The notes: generated by a model from the letters alone, not told the origin. A stretch of DNA of 64,000 nucleotides from Candidatus Nomurabacteria bacterium (GCA_943350875.1 CALRAL010000003.1:25174-89173), one strand, 5' to 3'. Positions 25,645 through 57,628 are shown, counted from the stretch's first letter. Numbers and translations: made by a program.

Positions 25645-28600
25645 ATGCGTACAAACAAGACGTTTAGTTTCCTGTTTGTGTTTTTTATTTTTCTCAGCAT
25701 TTTCTATATTTTTACTCCGAAAGTTTACGCTAATTCTCCGACCATTGTGACGAATAATATTACGGAAAATATAACTTGGAATTTAGAAGGAAGTCCATAT
25801 TTAGTGGTTGATCATATCACTGTAATTCGGGGTGTGACCCTTACTATAGATGCAGGAGTTGTTGTTAAATTTGACGACAACTCCATCGCTGTTTTAGGTA
25901 CCATAAATGTAAATGGTACTTCTGGCTTACCAGTATTTTTTACTTCGTATTATGATGATACAGTTAGTGGTAGTATTGATGATAAAGAATCTTGTTATGA
26001 AAATATAGATGAGGAAGGTAATGACTTAGGTGAAATTTGTGAAACCTACGATCTGGGCGATCCATCTTTTGAGGATTGGCATGGAATTTTTGTAAGTGAT
26101 ATAACAGGTGCTAGCAATTTCTCTTATGCTAATTTTAGCTATGCTAGAACTGCCTTATTTTTAGATAGTAATCCTTCATTTACAGCGGACGATATAAATA
26201 TCAATGAAGCCAAGAGTGGTATTACCATTAGTAAAAGCACAGCTAATTTTTCAAATTTAAAGGAAAATAATGTTTCTTCTGATGGTTTGGTAATTTATGA
26301 TCATGGCATTGTCACTTTGGATGGTTTTATAAATGCTGGTAGTCGTGATGCAGTGAGTGTTTATAATACGAGCTCTCTTACACTAAAAAATGCTAGCATT
26401 TCAAGTGCCTTCGGTGATAGTATAGCTATTTTTAATGATAGTAGTTTAATTTCGACCAATGTAATGATAAGTGAATCATTCCACAATTCTCTAGCCATTT
26501 TTAATAACAGTAAGGCAGTTTTTAATAATAGTAAAATCACTAATGGTCAATATATCTTTAATGCTGTTGCGGTTTTTAATGATTCTTCACTTTCAGCGGA
26601 TAAGACTATTTTTGATGGAGGTTTAAGTGGCGGTATTGAAATTTTTAATAGTTCTAAGCTAATACTGACGCATTCTGTCGTGAAGAATTTTCTAACAGCA
26701 GGTATCGAAGATTATGGAAGTGAATTAAATTCCGAGCCTAATGTTATTTCTATTAATAATTCAAGCATCACAAACAATGATATAGGGCTAGACATTTATA
26801 ATGCACCTACTCGGACTCCTACTACACTCTTGGTTTCCAATAATATTATTTCAGACAATACTTCTTTTGGGGCACGGACTTTTAGTGAAATTATTGATGC
26901 ATCTTTTGAGAAGAATTGGTGGGGAGACAAAACTGGACCATACAATGACCCCTCGAATCCTGATGGCCTAGGTGATATGGTTTCCAGTCATATAGCCTTT
27001 ACTCCATGGTGTCTGAATAAATTCTGCTCTTTTCATGAGTCTGTGATAATCATCCCGGGGATAATGGGTTCAGAAATTGTAAAGAATTATGATGATTTTG
27101 GGGAAGTGTGGCCGAATGTCACGAAGCTAGTCCTTTCTTTCTTTGACGGCCACTTAGATGAGCTGATATTGAACCCTGACGGCACGGAGAGTGTAGACAG
27201 GCCAATGCTCGAGCCAGACATCATCCGGAAGACAGTCACGACAGATACATTTGATGGATTGATCAAAGAATTAACCGCTAATGGCTATGAAGAGGGCAAG
27301 GATTTATTTGTTTTCCCTTATGATTGGCGCAAAGATAATGCAGAGACAGCTCTAAAGTTGAAAGAGAAAATTGCAGAAGTGCTGAAGATAGATGGAGGGA
27401 CAAAGGTAGACATCGTTGCGCACTCGATGGGTGGCTTGGTAGCGAAGGCATACATTGCAGAGAACGGCGTCAGTAAAGTGGACCAGCTTTTCTTTGTAGG
27501 CACACCGCACCTGGGTGCGCCAAAGGCCTTCAAAGCTCTGATGTATGGAGATGATATGGGAATAAATACATTTTTTGGTTTTATACAACTTTTAAGTCCA
27601 AACAGAATAAGAGTAATTTCTCAAAATATGCCTGCAGTATATGAGCTCCTACCAAGTCGGAAATATGTGGATACTTTGGGTTTTAAATATGTAAAAGATT
27701 TATTTACTGGTTTCTTGTATGGAGCGGAACTTGCGAATTTGAATTATGCAGATACGCAGGCTTTGATGGTCAAAGATGGCAGGAATAAAGATATGTTTCT
27801 GATGGCGAATAGTTTACACGAGAGCATAGATAGTTTAGATTTATCCAAAATAGACGTTTATAACTTCATCGGCGCCGGCACGAAGACCTTGGGCAAGATA
27901 ATAATCAAAAACAAGAGGGAGAGGATGGGCTTCTTCTCCCTTTTCTCTCCAGACTATATGTTGGAGTATGTGAGTGGCGACAAGACAGTGCCGAAGGCCT
28001 CGGCGGAGGGCCAAATATATGGCAAGAAATATTACGTAGATAGCGTGTCACACTCAGAGCTTCCTTCATTCCAAAGTGTGAGAGATAAAATCTTGGAAAT
28101 ATTAAAGAAAGATACAGAGAAAGATTTAGCACATCTTTCAAAGAATCAGAAAGCGTACAATATATCTGGCAAAGTAGTGAGCTCACATGATTCTGTGGTG
28201 CTTCATATATATGATGACGCGGGGCACCATACAGGCCCAGTGGATGAAAAGGGTGTACCATCAAAGACGAATACTGGCCATATAGAACAGGGGATAAGCG
28301 GGGTGAGCTATGACCAGATAGGGGCAAATAGCTTTGCTTTCTTGCCAGCTGAGGGACATTATAAAGTAGTGAATTATACAGCAGAGGCTGATTCTACCGG
28401 ATATTACAATTTTTACATTGAAAACATAGACACAGATGATATAAAGACAAAAGAGACATATTGGGACCAAATACCTGTGAAAACTCCTGAGACTGTTTCT
28501 GAGATAGATGTAGTGGATGATGTAGCTATTCCAGATCCATCAATACCAGAAGCTTTACCTGTAATCCTTGTGGATAATGATGGCGATGGTGTTTTTGAGC

Positions 28601-29232
28601 AGAGCATCACTCCTTCTTCAGTGCTTGATACAGTACAGGCATCTGACTTGATTCCGCCAGTGGCTGTGGGCTCTGTAGTAGAGAATACTGTCTCTATTAT
28701 ATCTACCGATGAGAACTCGGGGGTATTAAAAACTGAATATTCTACAGACGGAGCGACTTGGCTGAAATATGAAATTCCTATTTTAGTAAAGCCTCATACT
28801 GACGGCACAGAGATAGTTTTCCAATATTTTTCTACTGATAAAGCGGGGAATGTGGGCGAAGTGAAGACTCTAAATATTCTACCATCAGTACCTGAAAAGG
28901 TAATTGCTCAAGATGTTGTGCCTGTAGTGCATAGTTCTGGAGGCGGACATGTGTTTTTGAATAATCAACCGAATATTCCCGTTTTAGTAACTGTAGTGCA
29001 AAATAAAGAAGAAGTGACAGAAAAAAAGCCGAAGGTCCCGACAACAGGAGGGATAAAAAAGAAGACCGTAAAAGTAGCTGTAACACCAAATATTCCTAAA
29101 AATAAAATAGAGCCGATAGACCTTACAGCTTCAGCGGGCAGTACGGGCACACATACGAATACAGTGCTACTTATCTCTGTCATAGGTGGTTCTGCAGTTT
29201 TGTTATTAGCTAAAAGGTTTATAAAAATGTAG
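25645..29232 (+). CDS. Large secreted surface protein with a right-handed beta-helix region, an alpha/beta-hydrolase (LCAT/PGAP1-like lipase, GxSxG) domain, and a C-terminal TM anchor with a basic tail
   Basis: 1195 aa with a signal peptide and NNS/NDS beta-helix repeats. DIVAHSMGGLVAKAY is the serine nucleophile elbow. It ends in a hydrophobic helix followed by KRFIKM. Confidence 0.5.
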   Translation: MRTNKTFSFLFVFFIFLSIFYIFTPKVYANSPTIVTNNITENITWNLEGSPYLVVDHITVIRGVTLTIDAGVVVKFDDNSIAVLGTINVNGTSGLPVFFTSYYDDTVSGSIDDKESCYENIDEEGNDLGEICETYDLGDPSFEDWHGIFVSDITGASNFSYANFSYARTALFLDSNPSFTADDININEAKSGITISKSTANFSNLKENNVSSDGLVIYDHGIVTLDGFINAGSRDAVSVYNTSSLTLKNASISSAFGDSIAIFNDSSLISTNVMISESFHNSLAIFNNSKAVFNNSKITNGQYIFNAVAVFNDSSLSADKTIFDGGLSGGIEIFNSSKLILTHSVVKNFLTAGIEDYGSELNSEPNVISINNSSITNNDIGLDIYNAPTRTPTTLLVSNNIISDNTSFGARTFSEIIDASFEKNWWGDKTGPYNDPSNPDGLGDMVSSHIAFTPWCLNKFCSFHESVIIIPGIMGSEIVKNYDDFGEVWPNVTKLVLSFFDGHLDELILNPDGTESVDRPMLEPDIIRKTVTTDTFDGLIKELTANGYEEGKDLFVFPYDWRKDNAETALKLKEKIAEVLKIDGGTKVDIVAHSMGGLVAKAYIAENGVSKVDQLFFVGTPHLGAPKAFKALMYGDDMGINTFFGFIQLLSPNRIRVISQNMPAVYELLPSRKYVDTLGFKYVKDLFTGFLYGAELANLNYADTQALMVKDGRNKDMFLMANSLHESIDSLDLSKIDVYNFIGAGTKTLGKIIIKNKRERMGFFSLFSPDYMLEYVSGDKTVPKASAEGQIYGKKYYVDSVSHSELPSFQSVRDKILEILKKDTEKDLAHLSKNQKAYNISGKVVSSHDSVVLHIYDDAGHHTGPVDEKGVPSKTNTGHIEQGISGVSYDQIGANSFAFLPAEGHYKVVNYTAEADSTGYYNFYIENIDTDDIKTKETYWDQIPVKTPETVSEIDVVDDVAIPDPSIPEALPVILVDNDGDGVFEQSITPSSVLDTVQASDLIPPVAVGSVVENTVSIISTDENSGVLKTEYSTDGATWLKYEIPILVKPHTDGTEIVFQYFSTDKAGNVGEVKTLNILPSVPEKVIAQDVVPVVHSSGGGHVFLNNQPNIPVLVTVVQNKEEVTEKKPKVPTTGGIKKKTVKVAVTPNIPKNKIEPIDLTASAGSTGTHTNTVLLISVIGGSAVLLLAKRFIKM

Positions 29233-29241
29233 AATGCTATT

Positions 29242-29583
29242 ATGGCTGGAAAATTACAAAATTTATTTCATACTGAAACTTGGTGGGGTAAAACAATTTT
29301 TATTGTTTTAGTATATTCTATTTTCTGGTGTATTTCTTATGGAAGTATTCTTCTTATTCCAGAAGATACTTTCACTAATTCCAATAGTTATATGCCTTTT
29401 TTCTTATTTATTTATGTTGCAGTATTATTACCTATCTTGAGTTTATTTTTTACTTCTCGTATTAGAAAATCTATTTTTATAAAACATTATTATTTATTTA
29501 ATACCATTTTTATAATTTTATCTCTTCTCTTATTTTTTTACATTGATTTATTAAAGTCAATGCCTAATTGGTTTAATTTCTAA
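29242..29583 (+). CDS. Small polytopic membrane protein, hypothetical
   Basis: 113 aa with three predicted TM helices. Confidence 0.25.
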   Translation: MAGKLQNLFHTETWWGKTIFIVLVYSIFWCISYGSILLIPEDTFTNSNSYMPFFLFIYVAVLLPILSLFFTSRIRKSIFIKHYYLFNTIFIILSLLLFFYIDLLKSMPNWFNF

Positions 29584-29715
29584 TCCACTTTACTTTACTA
29601 AACTAAAGTAGATAGGAGGGGGGAATGGGAGTTTTTTTTAAAGGTCTTTCCTTGAAGGGGGAGCGTAGCGACGGGAAAGGTGAGGCCTTGGGGAGTTTTG
29701 TGGTAGACTTAAGGG

Positions 29716-30009
29716 GTGAAGAAGAAACCATCAAAATTAAAGTCTACAAAAGACAGGGTTATCAAATATTGTATTCTTTGTAGTAGTAAAATTAAGGTTA
29801 TTTTATATACTGACCGTTCTTATGTGGGTGGGTATTATTTTGGTAAGATTCCAATGTCTACAAAAAAAGAATGGGCAAGAGTTATGAAACTTGGAACAAG
29901 GAAATCAAAAATAGGGAGTTTAGATATTCAAGTCTTAAAAGAAGATCCAAAACCATATAAATATTTTGAGTATTGGGAATGTTTGAAGTGTTGCACGGAT
30001 GCTATTTGA
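29716..30009 (+). CDS. Small basic hypothetical protein with CxxC...CxxCC (zinc-ribbon-like) cysteines
   Basis: 97 aa with YCILCSS and WECLKCC, at the edge of the accessory island. Confidence 0.3.
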   Translation: MKKKPSKLKSTKDRVIKYCILCSSKIKVILYTDRSYVGGYYFGKIPMSTKKEWARVMKLGTRKSKIGSLDIQVLKEDPKPYKYFEYWECLKCCTDAI

Positions 30010-30143
30010 GCCTGTTTTTCTAGGTGTTTTTGTGGTAAAATGAATGTTTAATATAAAGAACAAATTAGATATCTAAAACTTATGATGATTACAAAATTGG
30101 TGAAAGTGGTTGGGATTTTAGTTAATAAACTTTTGAAATAATT

Positions 30144-33100
30144 ATGGCAATTACCAACATTGGAACAAATACATTATCTTCAAACCTAAAAACAATCTTA
30201 CCTGAGTGCGACAAGATTGATGCTTTAGTTGGCTATTTTTATTTTTCAGGGTTTAAAGATTTACACAATGAACTAAAAGATAAACAAATCCGTATTCTTG
30301 TGGGAATGGATATTGATAAAAAAATTATTGAAAAAGTATCAACGTTAAAAGAATTAAATTTAGACTCTTATTCTATAGATACTCACATAACTTCCCGATC
30401 AAGTGTTACTGAAGATTATATTGATAATTTCTCTCAAATTTTTAATGATAATGATTATTTCGATAACGAAGAATCACAAAATGCATTTGAAATATTTTTG
30501 AATAAAATAAAAGACGGTAGTTTGCAAATTAAGAAAACAGCTAAGGCTAACCACTCTAAATTTTATATACTACATAATAAAAATGGAGGCGGAATAGTAA
30601 TTGAGGGCTCAAGCAATTTAACGTTATCCGGATTGCGAGGACAAGCGGAACATAATAGAATCTTGACTGAAAAACATTATTACGATGATGATGTAAATAG
30701 ATTTGAAGAATGCTGGAACGATCAAGAGAATATAATTTTAACTAATATTGAATCAGCGGATAATTTTATAAAAGAAGTAAAAAGTAAAATTTGGTTATAT
30801 GCATTACCTGACCCACTGTTAATGTATTATAGAGTTTTAAATGAATATTTCTCAATTACTGAAATTGAGAATATGAAGACTCCTAAAAACATAACTGCTG
30901 GTAAGTTCTCTGATTTAAAATATCAAAAAGATGCGATTAATTTAGGTATTGATAGAATAAACAAATTTGGTGGTGTAATTATTGCAGATGTTGTTGGACT
31001 TGGAAAAAGTATTATTGCTTCAGCAATTGCACATAATTTGGGATTAAAAACTGTGATAATTGCTCCACCTCATCTTGAAGATCAATGGAATGACTATCGT
31101 TCTGATTTTAATTTTAACGGATTTGTTTACAGCACAGGTAAAATTGAAGAAGCCCTTGAAAGACATCAAAATGACGAAAAACTCCTCATTGTTTTAGATG
31201 AAGCACATAAACATAGAAATGAGGATACAGATAATTATAAACTTCTTCATAAACTTTGTGCCGGTCATCCTGTTATGGCTCTTTCTGCCACACCATTTAA
31301 CAATGATCCTAAAGATATTTATGCTTTGATAAAATTATTTAGTACACCCGGACAATCTACCATAAGGACAGTAGAAAATTTAAGCATGGCTTTCCATACT
31401 CTTTTTAAGAGATATAAAAAAGTTAGAAAAGATTTAAGAAAAACTAATGCAAAGGAAGAAAAGAAAGATGAAGTAAATAAAGAATCACATGAAATAGCAA
31501 AATATCTTAGAATAATGATCGAACCACTCATTATTCGTCGTTCCCGTAGAGATTTAGAAGAAATAGAAGATTATAAAAATGACCTAAAAAATCAAGGGGT
31601 TGCTTTTGCGAAAGTGAAAGAACCGGAATTGCTAGAATATCCACTTAACGGAATGTCAGACCTTTACATTAGAACACTTGAAAAAATATCACCGAATGAT
31701 AAAAGTGTAAGTTTTCGTGGTGTTCGATACAAGATATTAAGTTATTTAAAAGAGGGTTCAAATTTTGCTGAAAAATTAGTAGAAGATATTGATGATGATA
31801 GTATTTCTGCAGAAGAAAAAGTACAGCAAATTAAACAAGCTCAAGTAAACATAGCAAAATTTATGAGACGTTTGCTTGTGCGTAGATTTGAGAGTTCTGT
31901 TGGTGCTTTCAACATATCTCTTGAAAATATGATAACTTCTTCTGAAAAAATTCTTGAATGGTATAAAAATAGGCAAGAAATTCCAATATATAAGAAGGGT
32001 GAACTACCAACCGCAGAATATCTAAACGATTTAGATGAGGAAGAATTGGAGGGGGTTTTATCTAATTTGGACGCTAAAGGATTAATTCGTGTTCCCACTT
32101 CTGAATTACAATCTTCTTTTGAAAAACACTTAAATGAAGATATCGCATTATTAAAAAAAATAAAATCAGAATGGTTAGAAAATAATGAAGATCCTAAATT
32201 TGATTTCCTTAAAGAAAAAATTGCGAATTCTATATCAAGTGATTCTAATAGGAAAATTATAATTTTTACTGAATTTTCTGATACTGCAAATTATTTATTT
32301 AAAAAATTTAATGAGGATAATTTTAAGCGTATTTTCAAATATAGCTCAGAGGATTCTAACGATACTAATAAAAAGATTATTCGTTCAAATTTTGATGCTG
32401 GATTAGAAAAATTACAACAGGCTAACGATTTTGATGTAATTATCGCCACAGATGCAATTTCTGAAGGTTTTAATTTACATAGAGCAGGAAGTGTTATAAA
32501 TTACGATATTCCTTATAATCCAACAAAGGTTATACAGCGAGTTGGTCGTATTAATCGCATTAATAAAAAAGTTTTTGAAGAATTATATATTTTTAACTTT
32601 TTTCCTACATTTATTGGTGAAGAAGAAACCGGTATGCGTTCTATATCCACACTAAAAATGGATTTTATTCATGATCTTTTGGGTGAAGATACAAAAATCT
32701 TAACAAAAGAGGAAGACCTGAAAAATTATTTTGCTAAACAATATCAAGAAGAAAATACTAAAAATGATAGTTTGTCTTGGGATGCAAGATATAGAAATGA
32801 TTGGCTTAAAATAAAAGATGATCAAGATATAATTGCAAAAATTTCAAAGATTCCTCATAGATCAAGAATTGCTAGAAAATCTAAAGATATTTCTGGTGTT
32901 GTAGCATTTGCAAAAAAGGGTTCAAATTACATTTTTGCATTTGGTGAGAACCCTGAAAATGTTCGGATTGTTTCGCCTGAAGAAGCATTACCACTTTTCA
33001 ATGAAGTTGCTGATATGGAAAAATCTCTTGAGACAAGTATTAAATTTGAGCCCATCTATAAAATAGCAAAAGAACATATATTTAAGGACAATACCCACGC

Positions 33101-33404
33101 ACCGATAGACACCGGCAGAAGACAAGACGCTTTGTTGAAATTAACCCTTATCAAAGAAAACTACACACAAGCAGTTGAGTTGTGTAAAGATTTAGAGACT
33201 TTAATAAAAGATTTTGATGCGCTACCAAATGGGTTACTAAAAGATATTATTGACTTATCTATTGATAGAAATGATTATAGTAAGATTTTTAAAGAATTAA
33301 AAAATATGTTTCCTAATAATTATATTAAAAAGTTATTCCTAACAGCTGATAAAGCCAAAGATAATGGAAAACTTATTGTATTATCCGAAGAACTAATTGC
33401 ATGA
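30144..33404 (+). CDS. Fusion protein of a PLD-family (HKD) nuclease domain and an SNF2/SF2 helicase. Candidate restriction or DISARM-like DrmC+DrmD-type effector.
   Basis: 1086 aa. The N-terminus has the HKD motif NHSKFYILHNKNGGGIVIEGSSNLT. The SNF2 motifs are I (ADVVGLGKS), II (LIVLDEAHKHRN), III (SATPFNND) and V/VI (TDAISEGFNLHRAGSVINYDIPYNPTKVIQRVGRINR). It overlaps the downstream MTase by 4 bp. Confidence 0.75.
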   Translation: MAITNIGTNTLSSNLKTILPECDKIDALVGYFYFSGFKDLHNELKDKQIRILVGMDIDKKIIEKVSTLKELNLDSYSIDTHITSRSSVTEDYIDNFSQIFNDNDYFDNEESQNAFEIFLNKIKDGSLQIKKTAKANHSKFYILHNKNGGGIVIEGSSNLTLSGLRGQAEHNRILTEKHYYDDDVNRFEECWNDQENIILTNIESADNFIKEVKSKIWLYALPDPLLMYYRVLNEYFSITEIENMKTPKNITAGKFSDLKYQKDAINLGIDRINKFGGVIIADVVGLGKSIIASAIAHNLGLKTVIIAPPHLEDQWNDYRSDFNFNGFVYSTGKIEEALERHQNDEKLLIVLDEAHKHRNEDTDNYKLLHKLCAGHPVMALSATPFNNDPKDIYALIKLFSTPGQSTIRTVENLSMAFHTLFKRYKKVRKDLRKTNAKEEKKDEVNKESHEIAKYLRIMIEPLIIRRSRRDLEEIEDYKNDLKNQGVAFAKVKEPELLEYPLNGMSDLYIRTLEKISPNDKSVSFRGVRYKILSYLKEGSNFAEKLVEDIDDDSISAEEKVQQIKQAQVNIAKFMRRLLVRRFESSVGAFNISLENMITSSEKILEWYKNRQEIPIYKKGELPTAEYLNDLDEEELEGVLSNLDAKGLIRVPTSELQSSFEKHLNEDIALLKKIKSEWLENNEDPKFDFLKEKIANSISSDSNRKIIIFTEFSDTANYLFKKFNEDNFKRIFKYSSEDSNDTNKKIIRSNFDAGLEKLQQANDFDVIIATDAISEGFNLHRAGSVINYDIPYNPTKVIQRVGRINRINKKVFEELYIFNFFPTFIGEEETGMRSISTLKMDFIHDLLGEDTKILTKEEDLKNYFAKQYQEENTKNDSLSWDARYRNDWLKIKDDQDIIAKISKIPHRSRIARKSKDISGVVAFAKKGSNYIFAFGENPENVRIVSPEEALPLFNEVADMEKSLETSIKFEPIYKIAKEHIFKDNTHAPIDTGRRQDALLKLTLIKENYTQAVELCKDLETLIKDFDALPNGLLKDIIDLSIDRNDYSKIFKELKNMFPNNYIKKLFLTADKAKDNGKLIVLSEELIA

Positions 33405-36400
33405 TAAATTTTAATGATAAATATAATTATAATGAGTTTATAGATTTCTTATGTAACTTTCTACCGAATGACTTCAAGGAAATAGAAAAAGATATTGTTA
33501 TAAAAAAAGAAAGATATAAAGAAATTTCTAAAGCAAAAATACTTGGCTATTCAAGCTCTTTAGATTTGCATGTATTAGAAATGGATCATGCTCGTGAAAA
33601 TGACCCGAGAATTACGATTGCGACAGATGCTTTCAAAATACTTGCTGATAATTGGGTACATAAAGCTTTAGTAATCTTCAAGAACAGCACTTCAGATAAT
33701 TATCGATTTTCTTACTTAACAATATCTATAGATTTAAATGATAAAAATAAACCAATTAAAACATATTCAAACGCCCGCCGGTATTCTTTTTATCTTGGTT
33801 CCGGCGCAAAAATTAACACCCCAAAACAACAACTTGTTAGTAAGGGTCGAATAAAAGATTTAAATGATTTAGTAAGTAGATTTTCTGTTGAAGTTGTGAA
33901 TAAGCAATTTTACTTTGAGATTGCAAAATTCTTTGATGAACTTGTTTCGAGTGAGGATAAAAATCTAGCACTTCCGGGTATATCAGAAGAAGACACGAAT
34001 ATCAGAAAGAGTTTTGCTGTTCGGCTTATTGGTCGTATAATGTTTTGTTGGTTTTTGAAACAGAAAAAATCTGACAATGGTCAACTTATTCCTGATGAAC
34101 TACTTTCCTCAAAAACAGTATCGGATAGTTATTATCACAGTACTCTTGAACCATTATTTTTCGGCGTATTAAATACCAGCATTGAATCTCGAGATATTCG
34201 TAGTGATTTGTTTGATAAAGTGCCGTATCTCAATGGAGGACTGTTTAATCCTCAATCAGACGACTATTATGACCTAGATAGAGAAACTTTTACCTCGAGA
34301 CATATTAACACTCTTAAAATCAGTGATGACTGGTTCAAGAACTTCTTTGAGCTTCTCGAGACTTATAATTTTACAATTGATGAGAATACTGTTTTTGATC
34401 AAGAGCTTTCTGTTGATCCAGAAATGCTTGGAAGGATTTTTGAGAATTTGCTTGCAGAAATAAACCCAGAAACTGGAAGCAGTGAGCGTAAGCGTACGGG
34501 AAGTTTTTATACGCCACGTCAGATTGTTGAATATATGGTAGACCAGTCTTTGATTGAATATTTAAAAACAAAAACAGGGATTCAAGATAAAAAATTATCT
34601 GCTCTTGTTAGCTACGATTTAGCAGACGATACAGAGCACCCACTAGACGATAAGGATAAACAAGAAATAATAAACGCAATAGAATCTCTTAAAATTCTTG
34701 ATCCAGCTTGTGGTTCGGGGGCATACTCAATCGGTGCGCTTCAAAAAATTGTTTATATTCTTCAACAAATAGATCCAGATTGTAAATTATGGCTTGAGCA
34801 AAAATTAAAAGGTGTTCCAGAGTTGTATAAGAAAAAAATAATTGATGAAGTTAAATCGAACCCTTTTGACTACACACGGAAACTAGATATTATTAAAAAT
34901 TCAATCTTTGGCGTAGATATTCAGCCAATTGCTGTAGATGTTTCCCGTTTGAGATGCTTTTTGACACTTGTCGTTGAGTCAGAAGTAAATGATACAAAAC
35001 TAAACAGAGGGATAGAACCTTTACCGAACTTGGACTTTAAATTTGTCTGTGCAAATACTTTGATTAGCTTGCCAAAATCTCAATCTAGCAATCTTTTCGA
35101 AGACCATTCCGGTATCATCGAGCTTTCAAAAATAATGTCGGAATATTTCTCTTGCAATAGCCAAAGAAAAAATGAAATTAAACTTAAATTTACAAATTTA
35201 CAAAAAGAAATACTAGAAAAGACAATATCCGCTTTCGGTAAAAATACGGGAGAGCTAACTTTAAAACTTACAACTTGGAATCCATTTAGTAATAATTCAA
35301 ATTCTTGGTTTGACCCGGAATGGATGTTTGGGTTGGAGGAAAAGTTTGATGTGGTTATCGGTAATCCGCCCTATGTTGATTCAGAGACAATGGTAAAAGA
35401 TAACCCTGATTTGAGAAATTTGTATACTTTGCTTTACAAAACAGCTATAGGTAATTGGGATTTGTTTATCATTTTTATAGAGCAGGGCATCAATTTTCTA
35501 AGCAATTATGGAAATTTGTCATTTATCGTGCCTAACAAATTGATTGCTGCGAAATATTCTGAGTCTATTAGATTACACATGCAGACTAAAAATATAAAAT
35601 ACATAAGAGATTATTCTGATGTGAGAGTATTTAAGGAAGCGAGCGTGTATCCTATTGTTTTTCAGATATCGAACTCATTGAATTCAGATTCAAGCGTTAT
35701 CTTAACAAAAATGAAAGATATCGAAGAATATGAATTAATTAACAAAATACCCCATGCACTGTTTTATGCGGATGTATTTTGGGATAGGTATTTTATAAAA
35801 CCAGAAGCACTCAAGGTAATTATTAAAATCTCACAAAATCCTAAACTTGAAAAAATTAATGATTTAGTTTTGGGTGCAGCCACTGTTAATGAAGCATATA
35901 AATTAAAAGAAATTATTACTGAGGCAGAAATTGAAAAACAAGAATATAAAAAACTAATTAATTCCGGGACAATTGATCCATATACTTCTTTATGGGGTGA
36001 CAAAAAAACTCAATATATTAAATCGTCATATAAAGTGCCTGTGGTGGAAAATGACAAGCTAAATAAATTATTACCGAGACGATTTATTCAAGCAAATAGT
36101 GAAAAGCTTATTATTGCCGGGATGTCAAAGAGATTAGAGGTTTTCTATGATTCCGGTGAATACATTGCTGGTAAATCTACCACAATCATTTTAAATAATG
36201 AGAAAATTGACTTGTTATATTTACTTGCAGTTCTTAATTCAAAATTGATTTCTTATTGGTATAAGGTATATTTTAGTTCTTTGTCACTTGCTGGAGGTTA
36301 TTTGAGAATTAGTAATAACGAAATCAAAAAGATTCCAATTGTAGTGGCTAATAAAAAGACGCAAGAAGGTATAATTAAAATTGTTAACCAAATTCACGAT

Positions 36401-36514
36401 TGTAAAAAAGGAAGTAATAAAAATACAGACGACCTAGAGTCAAAAATTGATGAATTGGTCATGGATTTATACGGACTAAATGAAGATGAAAAAGAAATTA
36501 TTAGAAATTCGTAA
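33401..36514 (+). CDS. Large gamma-class N6-adenine DNA methyltransferase (Eco57I/type IIG/BREX-PglX-like) with a C-terminal specificity region
   Basis: 1037 aa with LGRIFENLL...GSFYTPRQIVEYMV, motif I LDPACGSGAYSIG and motif IV VIGNPPYV. It is translationally coupled to the PLD-SNF2 gene. Confidence 0.8.
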   Translation: MINFNDKYNYNEFIDFLCNFLPNDFKEIEKDIVIKKERYKEISKAKILGYSSSLDLHVLEMDHARENDPRITIATDAFKILADNWVHKALVIFKNSTSDNYRFSYLTISIDLNDKNKPIKTYSNARRYSFYLGSGAKINTPKQQLVSKGRIKDLNDLVSRFSVEVVNKQFYFEIAKFFDELVSSEDKNLALPGISEEDTNIRKSFAVRLIGRIMFCWFLKQKKSDNGQLIPDELLSSKTVSDSYYHSTLEPLFFGVLNTSIESRDIRSDLFDKVPYLNGGLFNPQSDDYYDLDRETFTSRHINTLKISDDWFKNFFELLETYNFTIDENTVFDQELSVDPEMLGRIFENLLAEINPETGSSERKRTGSFYTPRQIVEYMVDQSLIEYLKTKTGIQDKKLSALVSYDLADDTEHPLDDKDKQEIINAIESLKILDPACGSGAYSIGALQKIVYILQQIDPDCKLWLEQKLKGVPELYKKKIIDEVKSNPFDYTRKLDIIKNSIFGVDIQPIAVDVSRLRCFLTLVVESEVNDTKLNRGIEPLPNLDFKFVCANTLISLPKSQSSNLFEDHSGIIELSKIMSEYFSCNSQRKNEIKLKFTNLQKEILEKTISAFGKNTGELTLKLTTWNPFSNNSNSWFDPEWMFGLEEKFDVVIGNPPYVDSETMVKDNPDLRNLYTLLYKTAIGNWDLFIIFIEQGINFLSNYGNLSFIVPNKLIAAKYSESIRLHMQTKNIKYIRDYSDVRVFKEASVYPIVFQISNSLNSDSSVILTKMKDIEEYELINKIPHALFYADVFWDRYFIKPEALKVIIKISQNPKLEKINDLVLGAATVNEAYKLKEIITEAEIEKQEYKKLINSGTIDPYTSLWGDKKTQYIKSSYKVPVVENDKLNKLLPRRFIQANSEKLIIAGMSKRLEVFYDSGEYIAGKSTTIILNNEKIDLLYLLAVLNSKLISYWYKVYFSSLSLAGGYLRISNNEIKKIPIVVANKKTQEGIIKIVNQIHDCKKGSNKNTDDLESKIDELVMDLYGLNEDEKEIIRNS

Positions 36515-36577
36515 ATAACAGGAAAAATCACTGTAACCGGCGTAAGTGATTTTTCAAAACTTCAACATAAGAAGTTT

Positions 36578-36796
36578 TTAACCGCGTGGTGGAAATGGAT
36601 CGTTTCCAAAAGAGTTTCTTTCACGAATTTTGCCATCTCGTCCGTGGATGAGAAGTTCAACTTGGTATGCTATTGCAAGTGATGTACCAGAATCTATGAT
36701 TTCTGATTGTGTCTTTGCTGTAAATACCGGATATGGATTGTGTTCTTGTTTGAGTGCCCAGTTTTGTCCGTTTTTTACTACATGTAGATTACTCAT
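36578..36796 (-). CDS. DUF2188-like small protein
   Basis: 72 aa with the C-terminal LIHGRDGKIRERNSFGNDPFPPRG signature, which I recall as typical of the DUF2188 family. Called from memory of the family consensus. Confidence 0.35.
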   Translation of the reverse strand: MSNLHVVKNGQNWALKQEHNPYPVFTAKTQSEIIDSGTSLAIAYQVELLIHGRDGKIRERNSFGNDPFPPRG

Positions 36797-36951
36797 AATG
36801 AATTTGAATTAAAGTTTTATTATTTTAGTTCTGTAATTTTCATTTCTTCGATTTCAGTGCCGGTTTCTGGTAAGCCGAAATGTAGACCTACATTTGCATT
36901 ATAGCATATTTTTTATTGAATCCAAAATTTTGCCGACGAAGAGGGGGATTG

Positions 36952-37118
36952 ACTTGAACGAAGCTCATGAACTCTGGCAAGAGCTTTAACTTTAACTTCA
37001 CCACTCAGCTAGGCCTTACCTATCAATTAACAAGGCCCAAAATCAATCTACTTTACTCAACTAAAGTGTAGAATGGTTTTTGGGGTTCTGTGAATTATCA
37101 TTACTGTGATAGACTTAG
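36952..37118 (+). repeat. Direct repeat copy A of an approximately 170-bp repeat (AACGAAGCTCATGAACTCTGGCAAGAGCTTTAACTTT ... ATCAATCTACTTTACTCAACTAAAGTGTAGAATGG...)
   Basis: Approximately 85-90% identical to copy B at 37352-37520. It contains a degenerate CTAGGC..CCTA hairpin. Confidence 0.7.
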
Positions 37119-37127
37119 CAAGTGAAA

Positions 37128-37304
37128 GAAGAAAATAATGTTGCCTATATAGACGGAGCTAACTTGCACAATGGTGTGGAAACTTTAGATTGGGAATTTG
37201 ATTACAAACGCTTCAGAGTATGGTTAAAAGAAAAATACAGTGTTAAGCAAGCTTATTTATTTCTAGGATTAATTCCAAAATATAAAGATCTTTGAATAGT
37301 AAGA
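37128..37304 (+). pseudogene. Truncated NYN-domain gene fragment (VKEENNVAYIDGANLHNGVETLDWEFDYKRFRVWLKEKYSVKQAYLFLGLIPKYKDL*)
   Basis: I translated it by hand. It is homologous to the N-terminal 60 aa of the NYN protein at 10021..10542, has a GTG start and a premature stop, and is flanked by the 170-bp direct repeats. Confidence 0.45.
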
Positions 37305-37351
37305 ACCGTTCTTGCTATAGGACATGACTTCAAGAACTTATCGATGAAACT

Positions 37352-37520
37352 GGATTAGATGTAAACGAAGCTCATGAACTCTGGCAAGAGTTTTAACTTT
37401 CATTCTATGAATTGCTAGGCAAGACCTAGCAATTACAATTAACAAGGCCCAGAATCAATCTACTTTACTAAACTAAAGTGTAGAATGTTTTTTTGATTCT
37501 GTAAATCGTCATAGTAATTT
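37352..37520 (+). repeat. Direct repeat copy B of the approximately 170-bp repeat, containing the GCTAGGCAAGACCTAGC hairpin
   Basis: See copy A. Its internal hairpin is identical to the rpsR terminator core at 57466-57482. Confidence 0.7.
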
Positions 37521-37536
37521 TAATATTTCAGAGAGC

Positions 37537-37830
37537 TTATGATTTAGTCTTGAATGGTCGTTTGTTTGCTTCTTTTAGAATTCTAAGTGTTGCTTGTACT
37601 GAAAGGTTCTCGCTGGTAAGAAGCACTAATCTATCATTCAACTGATTAAGTAATGGGCTTAAAAACTCATCTGCCCATGATGGCGACAATGTCAAAACAC
37701 CAGCGAAATCTATTTCTAGTTCTTCGTCTTTAGGAAACTCACGCAAGGTCGGAGTAAATGCTTTGAAAGCCTCACTGCCCAATTCTCGTGATATTAATGT
37801 CTTTCCAAATTTTTCTAATTGTAATTTCAT
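37537..37830 (-). CDS. STAS-like DUF4325-type small protein, the putative partner of the upstream GHKL ATPase
   Basis: 97 aa with an anti-sigma-antagonist-like fold signature (ELEIDFAGVLTLSPSWADEFL). It is immediately downstream of 37855..38610 on the same strand. Confidence 0.45.
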   Translation of the reverse strand: MKLQLEKFGKTLISRELGSEAFKAFTPTLREFPKDEELEIDFAGVLTLSPSWADEFLSPLLNQLNDRLVLLTSENLSVQATLRILKEANKRPFKTKS

Positions 37831-37854
37831 ATATTTTAAAAATTATTAAACTAC

Positions 37855-38610
37855 TTAAAATTCTATTTTTGCTAAACAGCCTCGTACGATACGCTGACCA
37901 CGCGTAACATGAAACACTTTGTCTGGACTACTCATACGTACTTCGGCATCACCACTTTTATAAAATAAATCTATTGGCTGATCAGTAACGACTTCTCTGA
38001 CAAGTTTCAAACCGTTCCCGCGCTTCTCCGGCGCACGCCCAGAAATGAATTCTGTAAAGGCGACTTCCACGGCAGCGACATGGCTCGGAAGCTCCGGCCG
38101 AATTTGCCGTAATGTTTCTAAAATGCCCAATCCTCTATCGGCAAGAACAATGATCCGTTTTTCCAGATCGTAGCCAAAGAATATTCCCGCGGTGTCTGGC
38201 CATTTGCCTAAGTTGTGAGCAAACGAGTTATCACCAATCTCCCCAGTAATCAAAGTGATCAAAGAATACAACTGCTCAAACCCTGGCTTTCCCAATAATG
38301 CATTTTGCATCTTAATCAGTCTGGCATTAAAAATAGAACTTGTCGGACAGTAAAACGTCCCCGGGAACTCAGTCCCATTTTCTATCCAATCGGATGCAAA
38401 CTTTATCAAATCGCTAGCAAATATTTCCAAGTCTTTTTCACGGTAATATCGATGAGTACCCCCGTCCTTTTTAATCGGTAGCAGTTTACCGCTTTCGTCC
38501 CAACGACGAAGCGTTTGCAAGGAAATCCCTAGATATTCAGCTGCCTGGCTGATTGTAAGTAATTTTTCATCCATATAATTAAGGATACCATAATATACAA
38601 ATCTATACAA
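37855..38610 (-). CDS. MerR-type HTH fused to a GHKL (HATPase_c, RsbW-like) ATPase/kinase domain
   Basis: LTISQAAEYLGISLQTLRRWDESGKL is the MerR/excisionase HTH. The ATPase shows N-box ITGEIGDNSFAHN and G-boxes LADRGLGI and RGNGLKLV. The real start is probably the internal Met at about 38574, since the annotated start is TTG. Confidence 0.55.
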   Translation of the reverse strand: MYRFVYYGILNYMDEKLLTISQAAEYLGISLQTLRRWDESGKLLPIKKDGGTHRYYREKDLEIFASDLIKFASDWIENGTEFPGTFYCPTSSIFNARLIKMQNALLGKPGFEQLYSLITLITGEIGDNSFAHNLGKWPDTAGIFFGYDLEKRIIVLADRGLGILETLRQIRPELPSHVAAVEVAFTEFISGRAPEKRGNGLKLVREVVTDQPIDLFYKSGDAEVRMSSPDKVFHVTRGQRIVRGCLAKIEF

Positions 38611-38650
38611 CTAGAAGATAAATCTATACAAAAATATACCAATCTATACA
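38600..38650. promoter_or_regulatory. Three direct AATCTATACA repeats spaced 20-21 bp apart, immediately upstream of the MerR-GHKL gene
   Basis: Repeats at 38600, 38621 and 38641 have about two-helical-turn spacing, which is iteron- or operator-like. Confidence 0.4.
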
Positions 38651-38777
38651 TTTCTTAGTAAAAACTACCCTTAAAATAGTTTCGTATAATCAGCTAGGCC
38701 TTGCCTAGCAGTTTTGCTCGGTTTTAGGCTGATAACCGTGAAAAATGGCATTAAAAACACAGCTTTTCACGATTATG

Positions 38778-38805
38778 TTGACAAAAGCGTGAAAATGACT
38801 ATAAT
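38778..38805 (+). promoter_or_regulatory. Consensus sigma70-type promoter (TTGACA, 16-bp spacer, TATAAT) for the Fic gene, overlapped by three CGTGAAAA repeats
   Basis: TTGACA lies at 38778-38783 and TATAAT at 38800-38805. The CGTGAAAA octamer occurs at 38742, 38764 (reverse complement) and 38787. Confidence 0.55.
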
Positions 38806-38807
38806 AG

Positions 38808-39710
38808 ATGTATATGGCGAAAGTCCCTGCAGTATTTAATAAAATAAATTCTCTTCGCGAGAGGTACTGGAAAGCTTTCAATAACAAAGAATCTCTAATT
38901 AAACTTGTTAGCGAGTCAGAAATTGCTGAGCAAGTGTATAACTCAAATGCTATCGAAAATAGTACTCTTACACTTGAAGAAACAGAAAAAATTTTATTAC
39001 AGATTGACCTAGATCGATATATAAGTGAGCGCGAGATTTTTGAAGCCAAAAATCTCGCGCGAGTGGTGTCATATATTGAGAAGCGAGCAAAAGAACAGGA
39101 GTTAACACTTGAAGTTGTATTATCACTTCACAAGATGCTTATTTCAAATATTCGTGATGAAATTGCAGGCAGGTTTAGAAAAGAAAAAGAATTTGTGCGA
39201 GTGGGTAGTCACATTGCTCCCGCACCGCAAGAAATACTTGAGAGGTTGGGAAATATGCTCGCAGAATATAATGCAAATAATCATGAAAATATTGTAAAAT
39301 GTATTGCACGATTGCATTTAGATTTTGAGTATATCCATCCATTTATCGATGGCAATGGTTGTATTGGTCGCGCGCTTAATAATTATCTTTTGATTCGTGA
39401 AGGATTTGTCCCCATCAATATTAAATTTATAGATCGCAAAAAATATTATGATGCATTTAAAGAATTTGATGAAAAAGGTAAAATAGAAATAATGGAAGAA
39501 ATTGTTGCCAAAGCTCTGACCAATAGTTATCACAAGCGTTTGGCATATTTAGAAGACAAGAAAATTATAACATTAGTGGAATATGCAAAATCTCAAAAAA
39601 TTTCTCATTCAAATTTGATAAATAAAGCTAAACGACAAACTATTGAAGCTTTTATGGAACGAGGGATTTGGAAAATAGGAGTTGAGTATAAGAAAAAATT
39701 ATATGAATGA
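38808..39710 (+). CDS. Fic/Doc family protein (AMPylator or toxin-like)
   Basis: 300 aa with the canonical Fic motif HPFIDGNGCIGRAL. The start may be the ATG at 38814, giving a leaderless transcript. Confidence 0.8.
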   Translation: MYMAKVPAVFNKINSLRERYWKAFNNKESLIKLVSESEIAEQVYNSNAIENSTLTLEETEKILLQIDLDRYISEREIFEAKNLARVVSYIEKRAKEQELTLEVVLSLHKMLISNIRDEIAGRFRKEKEFVRVGSHIAPAPQEILERLGNMLAEYNANNHENIVKCIARLHLDFEYIHPFIDGNGCIGRALNNYLLIREGFVPINIKFIDRKKYYDAFKEFDEKGKIEIMEEIVAKALTNSYHKRLAYLEDKKIITLVEYAKSQKISHSNLINKAKRQTIEAFMERGIWKIGVEYKKKLYE

Positions 39711-42700
39711 AGAAAATGTAAAAAATAATAAATCAGAAGTAGCTCTCAGGGAGGAGAGGGTTTTGGAATTTTGGGAGCAAAATAAAATATTTGAAAAAGT
39801 TTCAAAAAAGGTAGCGAAGAAGGGTGACTATGTATTTTATGACGGTCCGCCGACGGCCAACGGCATGCCGGGGCTACACCATGTGGAGCCACAATCTTTC
39901 AAGGATTTAATTCCTCGATACAAAACTATGCGAGGGTATAATGTCTTGCGTAAAGCGGGCTGGGATACACACGGGCTTCCAGTAGAGCTTCAAGTAGAAA
40001 AAGCGCTTGGGCTAAAATCTAAAAAAGATATTGAAAAATACGGAGTAGAACTTTTTAATCAGAAATGCAAAGAAAGTGTTTGGCAATATAAAGCAGAATG
40101 GATGAAAATGCGTACTCGCATGGGTTTCTGGACTGATCTGGAGAATGCATACGTAACTTATACGAATAATTATATTGAAGCCTTGTGGGGAGTAGTGCAA
40201 AAGGCAGATGAGAGAGGATTCTTGTATAAAGATTTCAAGATCTTGCCTTGGTGCCCTCGCTGTGGGACAGCTCTCTCTAGCCATGAGCTCAATCAGCCTG
40301 GGGCATACAAAGATGTAAAAGATCTGTCTGTTTATGTGAAATTTAAAATTATTGGTGGCAATGATGCTTTTGCGGGGTCGCTGTCTCCGTCTGTTGACGG
40401 AGCGCTGCCTCTCGGCTCGTCAGCCTGCGAGACACCCCGACAAAAGCACATTGCCACCAATTTTTACATTCTTGCTTGGACAACAACACCTTGGACTTTG
40501 CCGGGGAATGTGGCTTTGGCAGTGGGGAATGATATTGATTACGTAAAAGTGAAATTTGGTGGGGAGATTTTGATTTTAGCAGAGGCTAGACTTTCTGTTT
40601 TGGGTGGCGAATATGAAATTTTGGAAAAATTGAAAGGCAAAGATTTAATTGGTTTAGAATATGAACCACTTTTTCCATATTTGTCCGCCCAAGGCGGATC
40701 CGCCTCTGGCGGAAAAGATTTTAGTGAAAGTATAAAAAATGCTTTTAAAATTTATCCAGCAGACTTTGTGACGACCACAGACGGCACAGGAGTGGTGCAT
40801 ACAGCTGTGATGTATGGAGTGGATGATTTTGAGCTTGGAACTAAATTAAATTTACCGAAATATCATCTCGTAAATGAAGAAGGTAAATTTATAAAAGGTA
40901 CAGGATTCTTGGAGGGGCGATATGTTAAGGAAGCTGACGAGAATGGCAAGCCGACACTCGCTGTGGACATCATTGATGACTTAACCAAGCGTGGACTTTT
41001 GTTTAAAAAAGAAAATCACTTGCACAGCTATCCACATTGTTGGCGTTGTGATACACCACTTATTTATTACGCTCGGATGTCTTGGTATTTTAAGATGAGT
41101 GCGCTACGTAGCCAATTAATGGCTGGAAATGAAAAGATACATTGGGAGCCAGAACATATCAAACACGGACGTTTTGGTGAGTGGCTTGATGGTATAAAAG
41201 ACTGGGCCATTTCTCGGGACAGATATTGGGGTACACCGATACCAGTCTGGCAGAAAAAAGATGGCACATATAAAACTATCGGCTCACTTTCAGAACTAAA
41301 AAAATATACTAAAAAGTCAGGTAATAAGTATTTTGTCATGCGACATGGGGAAGCAGAAAATAATATGGGAGAATTATATAAAGTTGATCCGACTCAAAGT
41401 TTTAATCTTACTGAAAAAGGGTGTCAACAGGTTTTAGAAAATATTAAAAATTTTAAAGAAAAAGTAGATGTTATTATTTCTTCCCCATTTGAACGAACAA
41501 GAGAAACTACAAAAATAGTTTGTGAATTTTTAGGTTTTCCGTTAGATAAAGTTATTTATGATGATAGAGTGCAAGAGTGGGAAGTAAGCTCTATGTTTAA
41601 TGGTAAGACACGTAAAGAGATGAAACAATATTATGATAATGATTATATGTATGCTCCACACGAAAGTCTTGCTGATGCAGAAAGTTTTATCCATGTTGTA
41701 AAAAGAACTGGGGATTTCCTTTATGACATAGAATCTAAATATAAAGATAAAACTATTTTACTTGTTAGCCATGCTGGGGCAGGCAGGGCTATGACGTTTG
41801 TCTCGAATGGAGCTACTTTTACTGATTTACCAAATAGACCAGATATAACCAAGATGCTAGATAATGCAGAAATCAAAAAACTTGATTTCGTGCCACTTCC
41901 TCACAATCAAAATTATGAACTTGATTTTCATAAACCATATATTGATGAAATAATTTTAGAAGAAAACGGAGAACAAATGTCTCGCACACCGGAGGTGATG
42001 GATGTGTGGTTTGATTCAGGGGCTATGCCTTATGCACAGAGTCATGTGTTAGGTACTCCGATGGACTTCTCTCCAGCCAAGGCAGACTACATATCTGAAG
42101 CGATAGATCAGACTCGTGGATGGTTCTATACTTTGCATGCAGTTATAAATTTGGTAAATAATAAATCAAGTAATGCTTTTAAAAATGTTATTTGTCTCGG
42201 GCATATTTTGGATGCGAATGGGCAGAAAATGTCTAAATCAAAAGGCAATGTAGTGGACCCATGGATGATGTTTGATAAATACGGGGCGGACACCCTCCGC
42301 TTATGGATGTATTCTGTGAATCAGCCAGGGGAGTCAAAGAACTTTGACGAGAAAAATGTTTTGGAATTAAATAGACAAGTTTTTGGCTTGCTTTATAATA
42401 TTGTGGCTTTTTATGAGCTTTATCGGGATAAAGATTTAGAAATTATACAAGGACAGTCCTTAAGAGAGTTTCCCCAAGGACTGTCCTTTAAAAATATTTT
42501 AGATATTTGGATTCTTGCTAGATTAAACGAGTTGATAGAACTCACTACTAAAAATCTAGATAGTTTTAAACTTTTAGAGCCGACTCGAGCTATGAAAGAT
42601 TTTATAAATGATCTCTCTACATGGTATCTGCGTCGTTCTAGAGATAGATTAAAAGATGAAGATAAAAATGCAAAACTTACACTGTATTTTGTATTAAAAA

Positions 42701-54202: not shown

Positions 54203-54227
54203 CTTTAAATTATATCACAACGAAGGT

Positions 54228-54252
54228 TATACACAGGGTTCCCCTGTGTAAT
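54228..54252. repeat. REP-like palindrome, copy 2, at the 5' flank of the RAYT gene
   Basis: ACACAGGGTTCCCCTGTGTAAT. Confidence 0.8.
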
Positions 54253-54267
54253 GTGTGGTATATTACA

Positions 54268-57491: not shown

Positions 57492-57527
57492 TTTATATGT
57501 TAATAACTTTGCCTTTACTTCTCGCGC

Positions 57528-57538
57528 GGGGGGGGGGG
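57528..57538. repeat. Homopolymeric G11 tract upstream of a surface-protein gene
   Basis: GGGGGGGGGGG sits in an AT-rich intergenic region about 95 bp upstream of the ATG at 57632. Confidence 0.8.
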
Positions 57539-57604
57539 TTATACTTACCTTATGCTTAAAAGGTGTATCTTTTTGAGCTTTAAAATTAACTTATTTCAGC
57601 CATA

Positions 57605-57628
57605 GGCTGATCCGCCTTGGGCGGAAAA
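57605..57628. repeat. Family-4 palindromic element (GGCTGATCCGCCTTGGGCGGAAAA) immediately upstream of the 57632 start codon
   Basis: Matches 62428-62451 in ftsK and 40685-40717 in ileS. Confidence 0.7.

Follow-up and report, generated by a model that had tools for sequence, protein, structure and literature searches.

We analysed a window of 64,000 nt (to which all coordinates refer) from the genome of a Candidatus Nomurabacteria bacterium (Paceibacterota), a member of the candidate phyla radiation (CPR). Between the genes for arginyl-tRNA synthetase (ArgRS, argS) and isoleucyl-tRNA synthetase (IleS, ileS), this window carries a 10-kb block (29.6-39.7 kb), which encodes a restriction-modification (R-M)-like gene pair, a kinase fused to a helix-turn-helix (HTH) domain together with a small DUF4325 partner protein, a Fic protein and a decayed middle section. 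We consider it likely that this block is a mosaic accessory island, which was put together stepwise in a variable argS-ileS site and which now lacks mobility genes of its own. A first-pass annotation had described the block as an accessory or defence island, and the gene content it proposed (PLD-SNF2 protein and methyltransferase, DUF2188, DUF4325, MerR, Fic) was recovered with Pfam and PADLOC.

The argS-ileS locus in related genomes

Related loci were retrieved with IleS from contigs that represent one genome per species. This search yielded 30 loci, and all proteins of the window were mapped onto them by tblastn. The nearest loci originate from metagenome-assembled genomes (MAGs) of Candidatus Nomurabacteria/Paceibacterota, with IleS identities of 46-61%. 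About 12 relatives have kept the order superoxide dismutase, metallo-beta-lactamase, serine hydroxymethyltransferase, deoxynucleoside kinase, dUTPase, ArgRS and IleS, followed downstream of IleS by (a Ser hydrolase/167-aa protein), RecO, a 641-aa protein, a class II aminoacyl-tRNA synthetase and a 423-aa protein. At the argS-ileS locus of these flank-conserving relatives, we found no match to any island gene. In five of them (L007, L009, L013, L032, L036) ArgRS abuts IleS with a spacer of 66-260 bp, in L030 the spacer measures 634 bp, and six other relatives have gaps of 1.5-7.6 kb. The longer gaps contain a PIF1 helicase, an LCAT-type surface protein with small membrane proteins, NUDIX, a Cas2/PaaX-like protein and a 582-aa protein. 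Since the island genes are absent between conserved flanks in about 12 relatives, these data support an accessory island, and the presence/absence pattern bears out the island reading of the first-pass annotation, which had asked for a comparison of gene order. The interval between the argS stop (25583) and the ileS start (39703) is a lineage-variable site. The 10-kb block was found in no other genome among those sampled, and its small open reading frames (ORFs) and the decayed region (36.8-37.5 kb) had no tblastn or tblastx match in any fetched locus.

The left border of the island had been placed at the surface-protein gene. The variable region begins further left, at the ArgRS stop, and includes this gene. 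Weak homologues of the surface protein occupy the same position in L008, L031 and L053, where the surface/membrane-protein cargo recurs at the argS-ileS site, and other positions in L050 and L051, where a homologous small ORF follows them. A metagenome scan with the surface protein delivered only five distant loci (30-39% identity) and no informative junction. The surface protein is older lineage-variable cargo, outside the 10-kb block.

The metagenomic source of the sequence, and two short contigs whose ends (29628 and 30145) come close to the left border, would be compatible with an assembly chimera of fragments from different organisms. However, the window is matched at 100% identity by contigs from several runs and assemblies; one of them (19242-39583) spans the left border and two others (28808-49710 and 28808-40427) span both borders with no alternative junction, and the overlap between the stop of Fic and the start of ileS is frame-consistent. 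Because contigs from several samples agree completely across the borders, we regard a chimera as highly improbable. When strain variants or an empty site were sought, every contig whose proteins matched exactly proved 100% identical to the window and offered no alternative junction, and a look-up by exact IleS matched no record.

IleS itself comprises 1214 aa, and its inserted His_Phos_1 domain is common to Nomurabacteria-like relatives. In Uhrbacteria and other Patescibacteria, IleS is shorter and apparently lacks this insert, since the matches there were shorter and split into two alignment pieces.

Table 1. Features of the argS-ileS interval and its flanks
Feature	Position	Strand	Remarks
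ArgRS	23781..25583	+	conserved left anchor; tblastn 55-65% identity in relatives, always upstream of IleS
1195-aa surface protein, beta-helix and LCAT-type lipase domain (Pfam)	25645..29232	+	
113-aa membrane protein, paired with surface protein	29242..29583	+	
Hairpin 1 (ACTTTA-N6-TAAAGT), left island border	29586..29609	.	
97-aa ORF, two CxxC pairs, putative zinc ribbon	29716..30009	+	GTG start; no Pfam, NCBIfam or PADLOC match
HKD(PLD) nuclease-Snf2 helicase fusion, predicted restriction subunit	30144..33404	+	Pfam PLDc_2, SNF2-rel_dom, Helicase_C
Gamma-class N6-adenine DNA methyltransferase, TaqI_C-type target-recognition domain	33401..36514	+	Pfam Eco57I 1e-31, TaqI_C 1e-10
DUF2188 small protein, PADLOC candidate PDC-S16	36578..36796	-	Pfam E=3e-16
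Direct repeat A: gene tail ..NEAHELWQEL*, hairpin 2, hairpin 1	36957..37081	+	
Truncated NYN-domain gene, N-terminal 57 codons	37122..37295	+	PADLOC NYN 9e-5
Direct repeat B: gene tail ..NEAHELWQEF*, hairpin 2, hairpin 1	37364..37493	+	
DUF4325 STAS-like protein, predicted kinase antagonist/substrate	37537..37830	-	Pfam 23.1 bits vs cut-off 23
MerR/excisionase-type HTH-SpoIIAB/RsbW-like GHKL kinase fusion	37855..38574	-	239 aa from ATG at 38574
Three direct boxes (G/T)(G/A)TAGATT, spaced 20-21 nt	38600..38649	-	just 5' of HTH-GHKL start
Hairpin 2 (GCTAGGC-N-GCCTAGC), between divergent HTH-GHKL and Fic genes	38692..38710	.	
Class II (SoFic-type) Fic	38814..39710	+	Pfam Fic E=3e-21; PADLOC SoFic 5e-29, PDC-S04 5e-32
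IleS	39703..43347	+	conserved right anchor; His_Phos_1 domain inserted

The R-M-like pair

The nuclease-helicase (Table 1) has PADLOC matches to 'HKD+Snf2' (1e-31) and DrmD (1.5e-31), and its motifs are intact (HSK...GSSN at 137, GLGKS at 285, DEAH at 352, QRVGRINR at 798). The methyltransferase (1037 aa) matches the PADLOC type IIG model (3e-84) and carries intact DPACGSG (at 434) and NPPY (at 655) motifs. For its residues 1-333 only DUF7814 and a weak MmeI_hel match were obtained, with no recognisable endonuclease domain. The two genes overlap by 4 nt, here and in L037-L040, and an overlapping methyltransferase gene follows the nuclease-helicase in all contexts examined.

Homologues of the nuclease-helicase are 63-75% identical and include MAGs of Paceibacterota and Minisyncoccia; one contig (L037) reaches 92%. 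As a pair, the two proteins share 73-75% identity with their counterparts in Moranbacteria and similar lineages, and 63-69% with those in Roizmanbacteria, Taylorbacteria and a 'Firmicutes' MAG. Across classes, the nuclease-helicase is 74% identical, compared with 65% (global) for IleS and its nearest relatives; the corresponding proportions of nonsynonymous differences (pN) are 0.17 and 0.23. In L037 the nucleotide identity of 84% ends at 35403 and returns only for the last 72 nt, and the stretch in between (35403-36443) encodes the variable specificity region of the methyltransferase. From this break and its late resumption, it can be seen that the recognition domain has been exchanged, which is typical of specificity switching in R-M systems.

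In L038/L039 (Moranbacteria; identical to the uncultivated virus genome L049 of IMG/VR) and in L040, the pair adjoins serine recombinases, a ParB-methylase and a terminase large subunit. With recombinases and a terminase as neighbours, the setting is a prophage-like element. Outside the two R-M genes, our island has no similarity to the backbones of these elements. Within the island, the R-M pair alone gives clear evidence of horizontal spread. The first-pass suggestion of horizontally acquired or mobile content is therefore upheld for this pair, which has spread across CPR, and is not upheld as far as mobility genes of the island's own are concerned. The L038/L039/L049 and L040 elements are related to each other: they have one or two serine recombinases and an 880-1160-aa protein (89% nucleotide identity between them), and the R-M pair lies in the middle.

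The closest described family is the Type-2 BREX-related (BR)/Hma-like system, which consists of an HKD-Snf2 helicase, an N6-methyltransferase, a DUF499 ATPase and DUF3780 (Rakesh & Krishnan 2026, PMC12839542). Our pair shares with it the N-terminal HKD-Swi2/Snf2 effector, the self-marking N6-adenine methyltransferase and the predicted R-M-like logic, but it is a unit of two genes with overlapping reading frames. The defining DUF499 AAA+ ATPase and DUF3780 had no Pfam match among the island ORFs and are not on record beside the CPR homologues examined, and membership in this family was not assigned since both are absent. Similarities to class 1 DISARM concern the helicase, whose best named matches are DrmD models, the methyltransferase, which weakly matches DrmMI, and the PLD nuclease. 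However, PLD is fused to the helicase here, whereas it is a separate protein (DrmC) in DISARM, and the DISARM core proteins DrmA and DrmB (DUF1998) are absent from the island according to Pfam. The NCBIfam DrmD model scored 137 bits against a cut-off of 610, and PglX and related models also stayed far under their cut-offs. With type III R-M systems, the pair shares a specificity-bearing methyltransferase and a superfamily 2 helicase-nuclease from the adjacent gene. Type IIG enzymes resemble the methyltransferase, a member of the Eco57I/MmeI-like family with a TaqI_C recognition domain, in its length and in recognition-domain swapping. In contrast to both types, the nuclease is of the HKD/PLD and not of the PD-(D/E)XK kind, and the methyltransferase belongs to the gamma-class. 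Taken together, the pair is predicted to follow the logic of type III R-M systems, with a nuclease of the HKD kind.

Repeats, hairpins and the decayed middle section

The palindrome CTTTACTAAACTAAAGT, which the first-pass annotation had located at three places, was found at 29593, 37051 (one mismatch) and 37463; these are 3 matches where 0.04 are expected. It corresponds to hairpin 1. L008 and L031 do not have the island, but their argS-ileS gap also harbours hairpin 1, right where the small membrane-protein gene ends. Downstream of rpsR, at 57465, there is an identical copy of hairpin 2 (TGCTAGGCAAGACCTAGCA), and L031 has a partial and imperfect one (GCTAGTAGAGGCAAGACCTAGCAA) 3' of its hairpin 1. 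Hairpin 2 has the appearance of a common intrinsic-terminator stem. Because copies occur without the island and after rpsR, we read both hairpins as lineage-wide and not as island-specific. The direct repeats that had been reported as 170 bp long are present, but their length is about 125-150 nt at a spacing of 407-412 nt. They are a duplicated gene end with its terminator region. Among the 10 families of long direct repeats in the window, only two are supplied by this single duplication of about 150 nt, and the others lie elsewhere. Thus, neither the claimed richness of the island in repeats nor their interpretation as marks of mobility could be sustained.

The duplication forms part of the middle section, in which the repeat-flanked NYN pseudogene was confirmed. 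The fragment aligns to the first 48 residues of an intact 173-aa NYN paralogue at 10021-10542 (42% identity, E=3e-15) and lacks the remaining residues (about 115). Since it aligns only to the N-terminus of the paralogue, it represents a truncated gene. The tail 3' of the fragment, in another frame, is the duplicated ..NEAHELWQEF* end, and this combination fits gene decay within a patchwork region. At the left end of the island, the small protein annotated as a zinc ribbon does have its two CxxC pairs, but it is without family support, and the source contigs call an overlapping 52-aa ORF (29625-29783) instead.

The repeated motif raises the question of whether the left 7.5-7.9 kb (29.6 to 37.05 or 37.46 kb) constitute one site-specifically integrated, prophage-like remnant, with hairpin 1 as att core and a recombinase that was subsequently lost. 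A motif of 17-24 nt (about 45 nt at looser similarity) is indeed repeated at the left border and twice internally, far above the expected number, and the same R-M pair resides on serine-recombinase elements in other CPR genomes. Against integration speak the absence of a recombinase from the island and the window (the IS200-like gene at 54 kb being the only transposase-like one), the occurrence of hairpin 1 at the equivalent spot in the island-less L008 and L031, which weakens the att interpretation, and the fact that the two internal copies belong to the duplication with its gene tail and terminator hairpin. To our knowledge, serine recombinases create no long direct repeats, which also counts against it, and the similarity to those elements ends with the two R-M genes. 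We consider an integrated remnant of this kind unlikely and prefer stepwise assembly of a mosaic island.

Several other repeats were observed in the window. GC-rich direct-repeat pairs of 39-59 nt (87-97% identical) are located at 2134-2172/3091-3129, 16563-16608/18574-18619 and 52849-52907/60594-60652, some of them within coding regions. A GC-rich double-hairpin family of about 40 nt (e.g. CAGCCAAAGGCTGG-TCCGCCTTGGGCGGA) is present at 25029-25070, 40675-40716, 57587-57628 and 62409-62450. Its copies lie in frame within ArgRS (..SARGGPALGWK..), IleS (..SAQGGSASGGK..) and FtsK, and one is mostly intergenic and reaches into the start of a 717-aa ORF at 57617. The extra residues are absent from relatives at the matching positions, a pattern that recalls Rickettsia palindromic elements. 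G-rich stretches without an Rfam match stand out in this AT-rich genome at 29610-29720 (from hairpin 1 to the first island ORFs) and at 57520-57540, where a G10 run follows the terminator hairpin of rpsR. The only transposase-like gene of the window is an IS200-like Y1 transposase ORF (54190-54966) in an AT-rich stretch (53-55 kb, GC about 0.30).

The HTH-GHKL kinase and its DUF4325 partner

The MerR-type gene was first called as an ORF at 37855-38610 (MerR/HTH_17), but its homologues have 239 aa and its true start is likely to be 38574. When the protein itself was searched with hidden Markov models (HMMs) and in a shallow-profile search against PDB, only the HTH domain was found. A library-wide search recovered kinase relatives down to 30% identity, from which a 45-member alignment was built. 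In this alignment E112, N116, H120, N121, G123, D146, G148, G150, R185, G186, G188 and L189 are invariant and N187 is nearly so. These residues constitute the N, G1 and G2 boxes of the Bergerat fold and thus support a GHKL kinase. Weak HMM matches were obtained for some family members (HATPase_c_2 in 10 of 45, HATPase_c in 7 of 45). When the structure was modeled with AlphaFold2 on a shallow alignment (homologues of 83-92% identity), the confidence score (pLDDT) was 42; with relatives of 30-51% identity, it rose to 91.9, and a Foldseek search with the kinase model retrieved GHKL ATPases only. Taken together, these data corroborate the GHKL half that the first-pass annotation had assigned to this protein.

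In all distant CPR contexts examined, the DUF4325 gene (84% identical) lies directly downstream of the HTH-GHKL gene. The two proteins share 84-87% of their amino acids, and their genes 77% of their nucleotides, with copies in other lineages, including one whose ArgRS is only 26% identical. The proportion of synonymous differences (pS) for the pair is 0.52-0.73, which means saturation, and pN is 0.06-0.08. Saturated synonymous sites combined with a low pN indicate very strong and long purifying selection and not a recent sweep. The pair and its upstream region (37537-38652) are conserved far better than aminoacyl-tRNA synthetases. In the literature, DUF4325 is scarcely mentioned (3 papers).

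In three distant lineages, conservation extends over about 75 nt upstream of the kinase gene, including the three TAGATT boxes, and we predict that these boxes may serve as operator/promoter for the fused HTH domain. As to neighbouring genes, the pair is accompanied in L045/L046 by a type I R-M system, Phd/ParE, a reverse transcriptase and a RhuM-Fic gene, and in L047/L048 by a type I R-M system, an HATPase_c_3 protein and a C5-methylase; in L041-L044 its neighbourhood is not related to defence. A scan of viral contigs with the kinase gene returned no locus.

Like kinases of the SpoIIAB/RsbW type, the protein has a GHKL fold with N, G1 and G2 boxes and an adjacent STAS-type partner. No sigma factor is encoded near the pair. 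The fused HTH domain suggests that DNA binding is the output of the kinase. Compared with SpoIIAB-SpoIIAA, RsbW-RsbV and SiaB-SiaC, the kinase here has a MerR/excisionase-type HTH domain fused to it in place of sigma-factor binding, DUF4325 stands in for a canonical STAS protein as partner, and the pair is often found beside R-M genes.

The Fic gene

The Fic ORF was first called at 38808, but homologues begin with MAK.., and the true start is likely to be 38814. Its stop overlaps the ileS start (39703) by 8 nt. A perfect sigma-70-like promoter (TTGACA-16-TATAAT, 38778-38805) ends 8 nt before the likely start, and from these two positions a leaderless mRNA that runs into ileS is predicted. The inhibitory motif reads SNAIEN and the Fic motif HPFIDGNGCIGR. 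In this copy alone, the first Arg of the Fic motif is replaced by Cys, whereas 14 of 14 aligned homologues keep GNGR, and the canonical motif HxFx(D/E)GN(G/K)RxxR is consequently not present. The NCBIfam SoFic equivalog model scored 36.8 against a cut-off of 550. With SoFic, the protein shares the Fic fold, an N-terminal inhibitory helix motif (S/T)xxxE(G/N) and matches to the PADLOC SoFic and PDC-S04 models; it differs from SoFic in the Cys of the catalytic motif and in that its gene overlaps ileS, with which it is probably co-transcribed.

Homologues with 78-88% identity occur in Nomurabacteria, Azambacteria, Taylorbacteria, Minisyncoccia and CPR1, and their synonymous sites are saturated. 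Members of this family are located beside a type I R-M system and RhuM-Fic (L055), beside a PLD protein, a serine recombinase and a type ISP-like methyltransferase (L056), or among housekeeping genes (L058).

Composition, age and origin of the island genes

Among the features by which islands are defined, we found absence from the syntenic site in related genomes and, as predicted by PADLOC, at least two candidate defence-type systems (the R-M-like pair, SoFic/PDC-S04 and PDC-S16). Several other observations weigh against a mosaic accessory island. When composition was compared with that of the other 45 scored genes of the window, GC content and GC content at third codon positions (GC3) were about the same (Mann-Whitney p=0.58 and 0.53), and the codon-usage distance of the island genes was no different from the rest of the window. 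Foreign origin by composition, for which the first-pass annotation had proposed this comparison with the flanks, was dropped since per-gene GC, GC3 and codon distance match the window. The R-M pair is somewhat AT-rich (GC 0.29-0.32) and the kinase gene somewhat GC-rich (0.425), a spread that hints at a mosaic and at nothing beyond. No integrase, transposase, tRNA or clear target-site duplication was found in or next to the island, and the repeated hairpin is not taken as an att-type flank since it also occurs in relatives without the island. Scans of the window for tRNA, tmRNA and Rfam families were likewise without result, and no recombinase domain was detected by Pfam among the island ORFs or elsewhere in the window.

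The closest sampled relatives are distant, with IleS at most 61-65% identical, and for this reason the decision between gain here and loss elsewhere rests on parsimony. All comparisons gave saturated synonymous sites (pS 0.52-0.86), and recent transfer can therefore not be shown; dating of transfers by synonymous divergence was abandoned for the same reason. For Fic and the kinase pair, old genes under very strong purifying selection explain the data as well as transfer does, and both look like old, relocating, extremely constrained CPR genes. The Arg-to-Cys change may have attenuated the Fic protein, and a defence role of DUF2188, the kinase/STAS pair and Fic is putative only.

If the block were ancestral to this CPR lineage and the sampled relatives, with their reduced genomes, had lost it time and again, no acquisition would be needed at all. 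The age and wide distribution of Fic and HTH-GHKL/DUF4325 across CPR, the native-like composition of the island and the streamlining of CPR genomes (PMC12259885) are consistent with such differential loss. However, all of the roughly 12 relatives are without any island gene at this site, with five spacers of 66-260 bp and unrelated cargo in the others, and in other genomes the island genes are found in quite different neighbourhoods. Moreover, the nuclease-helicase is closer across classes than IleS is to its nearest relatives. We judge differential loss to be quite improbable, and stepwise acquisition of a mosaic island, in an order that we infer, is preferred.

Discussion

From the domain content of this mosaic island, the following scenario can be proposed. 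The methyltransferase would mark the host's DNA, with its swappable TaqI_C-type recognition domain determining the site, and the HKD-Snf2 protein would translocate on unmarked DNA and cut it with its single-HKD nuclease domain, presumably as a dimer. This R-M-like module is apparently intact and circulates horizontally among CPR on prophage-like elements. The middle section with DUF2188, the truncated NYN gene and the duplicated gene tail with its terminator region appears to have decayed. The DNA-binding SpoIIAB/RsbW-like kinase and its STAS-like partner would act as a partner-switching switch, which is probably autoregulated via the three TAGATT boxes, and the SoFic-type Fic protein would be an AMP-transferase that is now presumably co-transcribed with ileS.

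A survey of aquifer prokaryotes reports that no defence families are commoner than R-M systems (with type IIG in the lead) and SoFic, and that the density of defence systems in CPR is high (PMC12259885). Accordingly, a cluster of R-M and SoFic genes is expected in a Paceibacteria-type genome, and as an island the block is thus ordinary.

The main points of note are the minimal two-gene HKD-Snf2/methyltransferase unit and the ultra-conserved module of HTH-SpoIIAB-like kinase and DUF4325. The candidates Fic and kinase/DUF4325 have amino acid identities of 78-91% across classes in which ArgRS falls to 26%. It is possible, and we suggest it only tentatively, that they form a CPR-wide, ultra-conserved and relocating 'sentinel' set, which settles preferentially beside R-M genes, and that the HKD-Snf2/methyltransferase pair represents a distinct minimal R-M type spread by prophages. 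If this were true, the kinase/STAS switch would be a DNA-bound regulator of restriction or an abortive back-up to it.

The genomes of CPR/Patescibacteria are tiny, there are no cultured phage systems for them, and knowledge of their resistance to phages rests largely on loci such as this one. Here, the locus provides, for a Nomurabacteria-like lineage, a concrete example of a variable insertion site, and also a compact nuclease-helicase/methyltransferase module that is documented to move across CPR classes on prophage-like elements. In addition, it contains two uncharacterised modules, the SpoIIAB-like kinase with its STAS partner and the SoFic-type Fic protein, which are conserved far beyond housekeeping enzymes and recur beside R-M systems.

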